Positions 19,987 through 20,556 of a stretch of 64,000 bases of DNA are shown here, one piece after another. The translations under genes were made by a program, and so were the position numbers. This stretch comes from Escherichia coli (lineage in GTDB: Bacteria > Pseudomonadota > Gammaproteobacteria > Enterobacterales > Enterobacteriaceae). The notes under the pieces were generated by a model. The model had not been told where the DNA came from. It ran no database searches and saw only the letters and a program-made list of their open reading frames with translations. The stretch lies in NCBI RefSeq assembly GCF_003334355.1, contig NZ_QOWP01000003.1; one strand, given 5' to 3'. Position 1 is the first letter of the stretch, and each line of letters starts with the position of its first letter.

Positions 19987-20040
19987 CGGATCGCTGGTTA
20001 TCTGTAAGTAATAATTATTACCGTAATGCAAAATACCCCT

Positions 20041-20077
20041 GGCACAAGTTACATCCTTCATCAGTAAAACTTGTGCC
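20041..20077 (+). terminator. Palindrome downstream of dcuR (candidate terminator, no T-run)
   Basis: GGCACAAGTT ... AACTTGTGCC, perfect 10-bp stem with 17-nt loop, about 55 nt after dcuR stop; no T-tract, so termination efficiency is uncertain. Confidence 0.4.
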
Positions 20078-20506
20078 AGATCAAATATAATTATCCCTCC
20101 ATCATCGCTAAAAATTAATATCTCTTCAGGTGAACGGTGTTTTTAATTTCAAAACGCTAACAAAAGTTAATTAACTATTATGTCACCCGCATTATGTGTA
20201 TTTTTACCCACAAATGGGTAGATCAGATTAATCTTTAAACCTAATGATATCTGCCCTGAGAACAAAAAATAGACCGATAAATATCAATAAGATAACAGCA
20301 AACAAAACATTAACATCTGCGCAGTACAAACTATAAACCCATCGCCAGAGAGTTTTTCTCTCTGAAAAAGCCGCTTATCACAGTGCATAAATTTGCCGCT
20401 GCTTTAATCAGCCAATATTTACTGTGAGGTATTTGCTAAAGCCGGTAACGACCAAACGGATATTTAGTCAGGCTCTGAAAACAGTTCATACAAAACAGAA
20501 CGTGAC

Positions 20507-20520
20507 TGTGATCTATTCAG
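20507..20520. promoter_or_regulatory. Crp/Fnr-like half-site motif TGTGATCTATTCAG upstream of dcuB
   Basis: Shares the 10-mer GTGATCTATT with the aspA upstream site at 767-776; about 40 nt upstream of dcuB ATG; dcuB is known to be FNR/CRP/DcuR controlled. Confidence 0.3.
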
Positions 20521-20556
20521 CAAAAATTTAAATAGGATTATCGCGAGGGTTCACAC

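Follow-up and report, generated by a model that had tools for sequence, protein, structure and literature searches.

The dcuR-dcuB spacer of Escherichia coli: a largely documented control region with a possibly new hairpin in the dcuB leader RNA

The 570-bp spacer that separates dcuR from dcuB in E. coli is very probably a composite control region of dcuB-fumB. It occupies positions 19987-20556 of the window, that is, of the whole 64,000-nucleotide stretch of contig NZ_QOWP01000003.1 (assembly GCF_003334355.1) that was analysed here. Most of its parts have been described before. An RNA module in the dcuB leader would lower or gate DcuB output, and a palindrome near the dcuR end is not a terminator. 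The original prediction read the spacer mainly as a long leader with several regulator sites, a reading that is correct in substance and already published. The regulator sites are largely documented, and because the transcriptional wiring of dcuB is known, the observation as first written adds nothing new. The single possibly new part of the region is a hairpin at 20346-20364 together with the invariant element CCCAUCGCC, which adjoins the hairpin on the 5' side. No description of the hairpin and this element was found in the searchable literature or in Rfam, and the literature search returned no transcriptome, structure-probing, or Rho data on the dcuB leader and no study of that leader. The hairpin and its neighbor are a modest lead.

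Organization and conservation of the locus

The gene order in this part of the window is dcuS (17639-19270), dcuR (19267-19986), dcuB (20557-21897), and fumB (21975-23621). The coding sequences of dcuR, which encodes the response regulator and is the upstream neighbor of the spacer, and of dcuB both lie on the plus strand; their limits come from the list of open reading frames (ORFs) and from the RefSeq annotation of identical loci. A 751-bp query across the spacer matched 5,415 of 5,426 complete E. coli genomes, each time between dcuR and dcuB. The locus is identical to the dcuB-fumB promoter region of E. coli K-12, with no difference at the level of DNA, and the coordinate in K-12 MG1655 equals 4369301 minus the window coordinate. 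The FNR site of Myers 2013 and its position at -132.5, the 5' end at -20, and the sigma-70 peak all map to this spacer. The length of 570 bp given in the original prediction is right, but the composition is less extreme than the approximately 70% A+T claimed there. G+C is 35.8%, so that A+T computes to 64%, and it reaches 69% solely in the sub-window 20100-20299.

A scan of one genome per species yielded 80 dcuB loci, and the dcuR-dcuB-fumB arrangement was found in it only in Escherichia, Salmonella, Citrobacter, Trabulsiella, and Intestinirhabdus. Wherever dcuR-dcuB synteny was kept, the spacer measured 552-910 bp and its G+C was mostly 31-39%. An alignment of 13 spacers displayed sharply bounded conserved blocks against a divergent background. 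These are located at 19997-20035 (block A), 20068-20088 (the FNR site and its 3' flank), 20139-20182 (block C), 20193-20205 (the -10 region), 20338-20364, and in the last 60 bp, which include a CRP-like motif and the ribosome-binding site. The expected multiplicity of regulator sites is borne out by the FNR site, the DcuR-type block, two NarL heptamers, the CRP-like motif, and two 5' ends. In other words, at least six conserved blocks and two 5' ends are present, where the original prediction had set a single start site and no conserved blocks as the opposite outcome. The term leader is appropriate for 20210-20556, but not for the first ~220 bp of the spacer, which lie upstream of the distal promoter. 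That part, palindrome included, is promoter DNA or the 3' flank of dcuSR.

The spacer is a recurrent site of adaptive mutation in the mouse gut, and an insertion sequence is found in it in a natural isolate too. In E. coli KMi029, isolated from river water, IS1A interrupts the palindrome in its left arm and loop (20043-20052), upstream of the FNR site. Added to the IS2 and IS5 insertions from the mouse gut, this isolate shows that insertion sequences hit the spacer in nature as well. A break of another kind is seen in the human isolate E. coli S7. Its breakpoint is near 20286, where the half of the spacer nearer dcuR continues into a truncated lambdoid gpFI gene and phage tail genes. The remaining spacer is located elsewhere in that genome, so that the break is a rearrangement or else an assembly join within the dcuB leader. 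On the other side of dcuB, the dcuB-fumB spacer (21898-21974 here) is reported to be targeted by the sRNA SdhX through base pairing in Salmonella (PMC6393394).

Activator sites and the distal promoter

The FNR site TTGTGCCAGATCAA occupies 20071-20084, and its center lies at -132.5 from the distal start. It has two mismatches to TTGAT-N4-ATCAA, and its ATCAA half is perfect. Evidence of occupancy comes from an FNR ChIP-seq peak for dcuB-fumB, for which a site TTGATCTGGCACAA was predicted at -132.5 from the start (Myers 2013). Since TTGATCTGGCACAA is the reverse complement of 20071-20084, the right arm of the palindrome extends into a site that is occupied by FNR in vivo. The site is kept as TTG.G..AGATCAA in Escherichia, Salmonella, Citrobacter, and Trabulsiella.

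Block C, TGTTTTTAATTTCAAAACGCTAACAAAAGTTAATTAACTATTAT, at 20139-20182 (-71 to -28), is near-invariant across 26 of 26 orthologous spacers from five genera and ends 28 bp ahead of the start of the distal promoter (P2) as placed below. It holds tandem (T/A)(A/T)(T/C)(A/T)AA (WWYWAA) repeats, with matches at 20141-20153 and 20159-20170. Abo-Amer and co-workers are said to have found, in 2004, a DcuR footprint 27 bp upstream of a then newly found DcuR-responsive dcuB promoter, and Janausch and co-workers reportedly placed a footprint of DcuR, in the same year, at -359 to -400 from the older dcuB start. Both footprints would agree with the invariant block at 20139-20182. By its sequence and its position relative to these footprints, block C fits a DcuR binding site and is assigned as such.

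The -10 hexamer of P2, TATTTT (20199-20204, plus strand), is located inside ATGTGTATTTTTA (20193-20205), a block that is invariant in 26 spacers from five genera. An anaerobic sigma-70 ChIP peak at 4.34712 Mb in older K-12 coordinates corresponds to ~20204 here (Myers 2013). Back-calculation from the FNR center (20077.5 + 132.5) puts the P2 start at ~20210, in agreement with the sigma-70 peak and the -10 hexamer. With this start, the dcuB 5' leader spans 20210-20556 on the plus strand. The P2 transcript would thus carry a 347-nt untranslated leader, and another 5' end is found 20 nt ahead of the ATG. Tables from mouse-gut evolution list a T-to-A change at 20203 that turns the -10 TATTTT into TATTAT, an improved -10, as well as IS2 insertions at ~20198 and ~20219 and IS5 at ~20434-20439. 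The mutations of the spacer selected in the mouse gut were accompanied by raised anaerobic dcuB expression. Because gut-selected mutations fall on the distal promoter, P2 is the promoter that matters in vivo. A consensus promoter and terminator scan of the spacer returned no promoter-like or terminator-like sites; the real dcuB promoters are activator-dependent and weak.

Other sequences of the promoter region resemble sites for further regulators. Block A (19997-20035) is AT-rich, reads GTTAT..GTAAyAATTATTA..ATAATGaAAAAT, and contains the perfect 14-bp palindrome GTAATAATTATTAC at 20008-20021. It is directly past the dcuR stop and ~175-210 bp upstream of the distal dcuB start, yet it is conserved in Escherichia, Salmonella, Citrobacter, and Trabulsiella. 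The GTTA/GTAA repeats of block A, and GTTAATTAA within block C (20164-20172), resemble ArcA-type boxes. A NarL-type heptamer, TACCCCT, at 20034-20040 on the plus strand is an exact match to TACYYMT but is not conserved outside Escherichia. The other heptamer, TACCCAT, is on the minus strand at 20214-20220. In the documented scheme, FNR at -132.5 and phospho-DcuR, assigned to -71 to -28, activate P2, and the second NarL heptamer overlaps +5 to +11 of its transcript.

A palindrome upstream of the distal promoter

The palindrome consists of a left arm, CTGGCACAAGTT, at 20039-20050 and a right arm, AACTTGTGCCAG, at 20068-20079. The original prediction had its place right (20041-20077), but the stem is longer than the 10 bp described: the arms are perfect over 12 nt and enclose a 17-nt loop. 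Nor does the leader begin with it, because the stem sits upstream of the distal promoter and hence outside the dcuB leader. When the spacer was shuffled 3000 times, three of the shuffles gave a perfect 12-bp inverted repeat with a loop of 3-30 nt, which puts the repeat above local chance. It is not a rare kind of object, as 16 positions in the 64-kb window have such a repeat. Folded as plus-strand RNA, the palindrome reaches -18.6 kcal/mol (z = -6.3). Both arms are kept in six Escherichia lineages, and the loop is variable. In the alignment the left arm is seen only in Escherichia, with no counterpart in Salmonella, Citrobacter, or Trabulsiella. The right arm overlaps the FNR site, which accounts for its constraint. 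A second FNR site in the left arm was considered and rejected because only a TTGTG half is present there. Conservation of the left arm in Escherichia alone suggests some use of the sequence as a stem.

What could the stem be used for? A stable 12-bp stem downstream of dcuR recalls an intrinsic terminator. However, the earlier remark that no T-run is present proved accurate, as none follows the stem on either strand and the terminator scan found zero sites. Lacking a U-tract, the palindrome is not an intrinsic terminator, and it differs from one also in its 17-nt loop and in having no conservation outside Escherichia. The most plausible use of the stem is in dcuSR read-through RNA because the palindrome lies 53-93 nt past the dcuR stop. 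It is conceivable, though somewhat less than probable, that the palindrome forms the 3' end structure of dcuSR mRNA in Escherichia, namely a protective stem that remains after Rho-dependent or leaky termination and takes no part in dcuB control. The position, the strong RNA fold, the arms that stay constant around a variable loop, and the low chance of such a repeat in shuffled spacers are consistent with this role. The lack of a U-tract and the loss of the stem in the three other genera argue against it, as does the fact that the FNR site would hold the right arm in any case, and one natural strain tolerates IS1 inside the palindrome. The Term-seq data of Adams 2021 hold no dcuR or dcuB entries. 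At most, dcuSR read-through RNA in Escherichia would use the palindrome as a 3' stem.

A conserved hairpin in the leader RNA

A consensus structure was computed with RNAalifold from 21 leaders of four genera. It contains three helices, including the hairpin CAGAGAG-UUUUU-CUCUCUG at 20346-20364 (plus strand, -10.6 kcal/mol), which was found de novo, and a long-range helix that involves the Shine-Dalgarno (SD) sequence. Evidence for the hairpin comes from the way in which its sequence changes. Compensatory (two-sided) changes occur at five of its seven pairs across the four genera, and its covariation score exceeded that of 500 out of 500 shuffles. In the hairpin 91.8% of cells were paired, compared with 31-60% in slid-register controls that count both helices together. 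The excess of G-U cells (11, against 3 A-C cells) points to a structure of the plus-strand (dcuB-sense) RNA. Judging by these substitution patterns, we regard the hairpin as a real RNA structure. It is the one covarying helix of the leader; helices of the E. coli minimum free energy (MFE) fold other than this hairpin and the long-range helix are only 76-83% paired across genera, with a single U-A to A-U flip, that of the C. freundii group.

Next to the hairpin, CCCATCGCC (20338-20346) is invariant. Two matches to CCCATCGCC elsewhere in the window are both within coding genes and were set aside as chance occurrences. The leaders of Salmonella and most Citrobacter are longer than those of Escherichia by ~150-180 bp, and the corresponding gap maps to 20254-20270. 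This insert gives a dcuB leader of 480-515 nt in Salmonella and in Citrobacter of the C. freundii group. The extra segment (~2570-2760 in locus L007 and ~2560-2750 in locus L009) contains a conserved stem, GTAGCAATGGAG..(A)TGCTAC, which is found in Trabulsiella too, and a GTGATCACA palindrome.

How might the leader limit DcuB output?

In the proposed mechanism, the hairpin, CCCAUCGCC, and a C-rich stretch upstream of them would act as an RNA module that limits DcuB output, either by masking the SD or by exposing the transcript to Rho. The case for masking starts from complementarity. In the folding model the invariant CCCAUCGCC can pair with the dcuB SD GCGAGGG. The candidate anti-SD, AACCC[A]UCGC (20336-20345, plus strand), is partly in CCCATCGCC, and the SD region, GCGAGGGUU, is located at 20543-20551 with its core GAGGG at 20545-20549. 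These two elements pair with each other in the E. coli MFE structure with a probability of ~0.99. When 28 orthologous leaders were folded singly, the anti-SD element was the MFE partner of the SD in 24. CCCATCGCC is invariant and GCGAGGG is so in most orthologues, and the ~200 nt between them diverge. Five of the seven long-range pairs never vary, and there is consequently no covariation in this helix. In Escherichia sp. E1V33, one G-C pair has changed to G-U, which is compatible with pairing.

Does the pairing block ribosome binding? In the P2 transcript, AACCC[A]UCGC stacked on the hairpin may pair with GCGAGGGUU and keep ribosomes off until a trans factor or cleavage at -20 brings relief; we hold this only tentatively. 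The pair probability, the common partner in most leaders, the long-range helix of the consensus, and two 7-9-mers that are invariant within a divergent leader all speak for it, as does the E1V33 change. Several observations argue against it. A metagenome scan of 19 non-Escherichia loci returned zero compensatory changes in the long-range helix and three uncompensated G-to-A changes, those of Salmonella enterica-like sequences in which GAGGG became GAGGA and a pair was lost. In the Citrobacter NCU1/Awk4 lineage CCC became GCC, followed by G to A, and the pairs were lost uncompensated. The energy required to open the SD was 4.8-11.5 kcal/mol in native leaders, which does not clearly exceed the 6.9-8.4 kcal/mol (sd 1.3-2.3) of leaders with shuffled upstream sequence. 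Masking by thermodynamics was dropped as an argument, since the shuffled leaders hide the SD almost as effectively. Furthermore, the chance of finding a 7-bp bulged SD complement among ~100 conserved leader bases is, as a rough estimate, ~0.05-0.2, and dcuB upstream regions of the Klebsiella/Raoultella type showed no analogue of the anti-SD. The dcuB leader is like known SD-sequestering leaders in its upstream C-rich SD complement, stacked on a local hairpin and conserved across genera, but unlike them it has no covariation, no excess stability over shuffles, and no known trigger.

Relief by cleavage would involve the proximal 5' end, P1, at 20537-20538 on the plus strand (-20/-19 from the ATG). 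P1 is a start or a processing site. This end was mapped at -20 (Golby 1998) and re-mapped at -19 by DMTSS, and neither method included a test for a 5'-triphosphate; the end may be a processing product, as the masking model would have it. Outside Escherichia the -10 and -35 that a proximal promoter would use are not kept. The junction GG/AUU matches the cleavage preference of RNase E, RN/WUU (slashes mark the cut). The -20 end could be either a weak proximal promoter or a processing product. A predicted helix, GUGAUCU/GGAUUAU (20508-20514 with 20535-20541), spans this end. In the C. freundii group the TGTGA half-site is lost by a T-to-A change, and an opposite A-to-T change turns the U-A pair into A-U and so preserves it.

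The other route to limited output, exposure to Rho, is the more doubtful of the two. Here Rho would load on the C-rich, G-poor, rut-like stretch at 20263-20340 (plus strand; 17 C, 7 G) of the untranslated leader, part of the transcription from P2 would stop before dcuB, and the hairpin would modulate loading or pausing. The stretch has the look of a Rho loading site as far as its base composition goes. Despite the divergence of the leaders, the best 78-nt C/G window is found at a constant place, just 5' of CCCAUCGCC, in nearly all genera, with ratios of 2.1-3.3 compared with a 99th percentile of 2.27 for the window as a whole; GC skew over 20200-20399 is -0.24. Rho often acts on long untranslated leaders. 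On the other hand, C makes up only 20% overall, the C/G ratio is modest, and the literature search found no bicyclomycin or Rho data that name dcuB. In other words, the leader resembles the long enterobacterial 5' UTRs that undergo Rho attenuation in being untranslated over >300 nt with a conserved C>G stretch, but it is only modestly C-rich.

Could the conserved leader blocks be nothing but DNA sites for transcription factors at P1, such as CRP, NarL, and others, with the P2 RNA functionless? The motif that the original prediction called Crp/Fnr-like and placed near 20507 is indeed there: TGTGATCTATTCAGCA, at 20507-20522, has three mismatches to the CRP consensus. Its conservation is partial, as the left half is kept in most genera and lost in the C. 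freundii group. Golby and co-workers reportedly described, in 1998, catabolite and nitrate control of dcuB, which would suit such sites. However, the hairpin keeps its pairing despite changes in sequence and has strand-specific G-U pairs, which is unlike a protein-binding site, and P1 itself has a -10 and -35 without conservation beyond Escherichia. Confinement of the blocks to a role as DNA sites is therefore quite unlikely.

The least probable reading by far is a small RNA or leader peptide encoded in the spacer, which the original prediction had raised on account of the length and composition of the spacer. The spacer is long and conserved, and a 30-codon ATG ORF in E. coli (20244-20336) ends in a stop codon, 20334-20336, that coincides with the 5' boundary of the candidate anti-SD. 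This ORF is shared by E. coli and Escherichia sp. E1V33 but absent from E. albertii and all other genera. The impression that no ORF is convincing was sound, since none of the seven ORFs of 30-37 aa in the spacer is conserved. An upstream ORF (uORF) ending at the anti-SD or inside the hairpin was likewise rejected because no ORF is common across genera. The suggestion of a small RNA or leader peptide found no backing in a promoter/terminator pair, in an Rfam match, or in a uORF conserved even within Escherichia, and the leader hairpin has no U-tract. An Rfam search of the window gave only noise, even at E up to 10, and three loci from Salmonella, Citrobacter, and Trabulsiella gave no match at gathering thresholds. 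A riboswitch or other known cis-regulatory RNA was also rejected, as Rfam gave no match and only one helix covaries.

Implications

A broader version of the preferred reading, in which the leader RNA limits DcuB output, can be put forward as a speculation that we consider unlikely to hold in full. The mRNA driven by DcuR and FNR would carry a clade-specific cis-acting RNA brake that masks the SD, invites Rho, or does both, P1 would be an RNase E cut that frees translatable mRNA, the level of DcuB would be set post-transcriptionally, and the IS insertions selected in the gut would partly bypass the brake.

In anaerobic respiration DcuB serves as the main fumarate/malate-succinate antiporter, and it is also a co-sensor of DcuS; it matters for gut colonization by Salmonella as well as by commensal and pathogenic E. 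coli. If the hairpin and the SD mask are functional, they would bring post-transcriptional control into a two-component circuit that is already well studied, and would give a simple reason for the 550-900 bp spacer that is found in every genus with dcuR beside dcuB.
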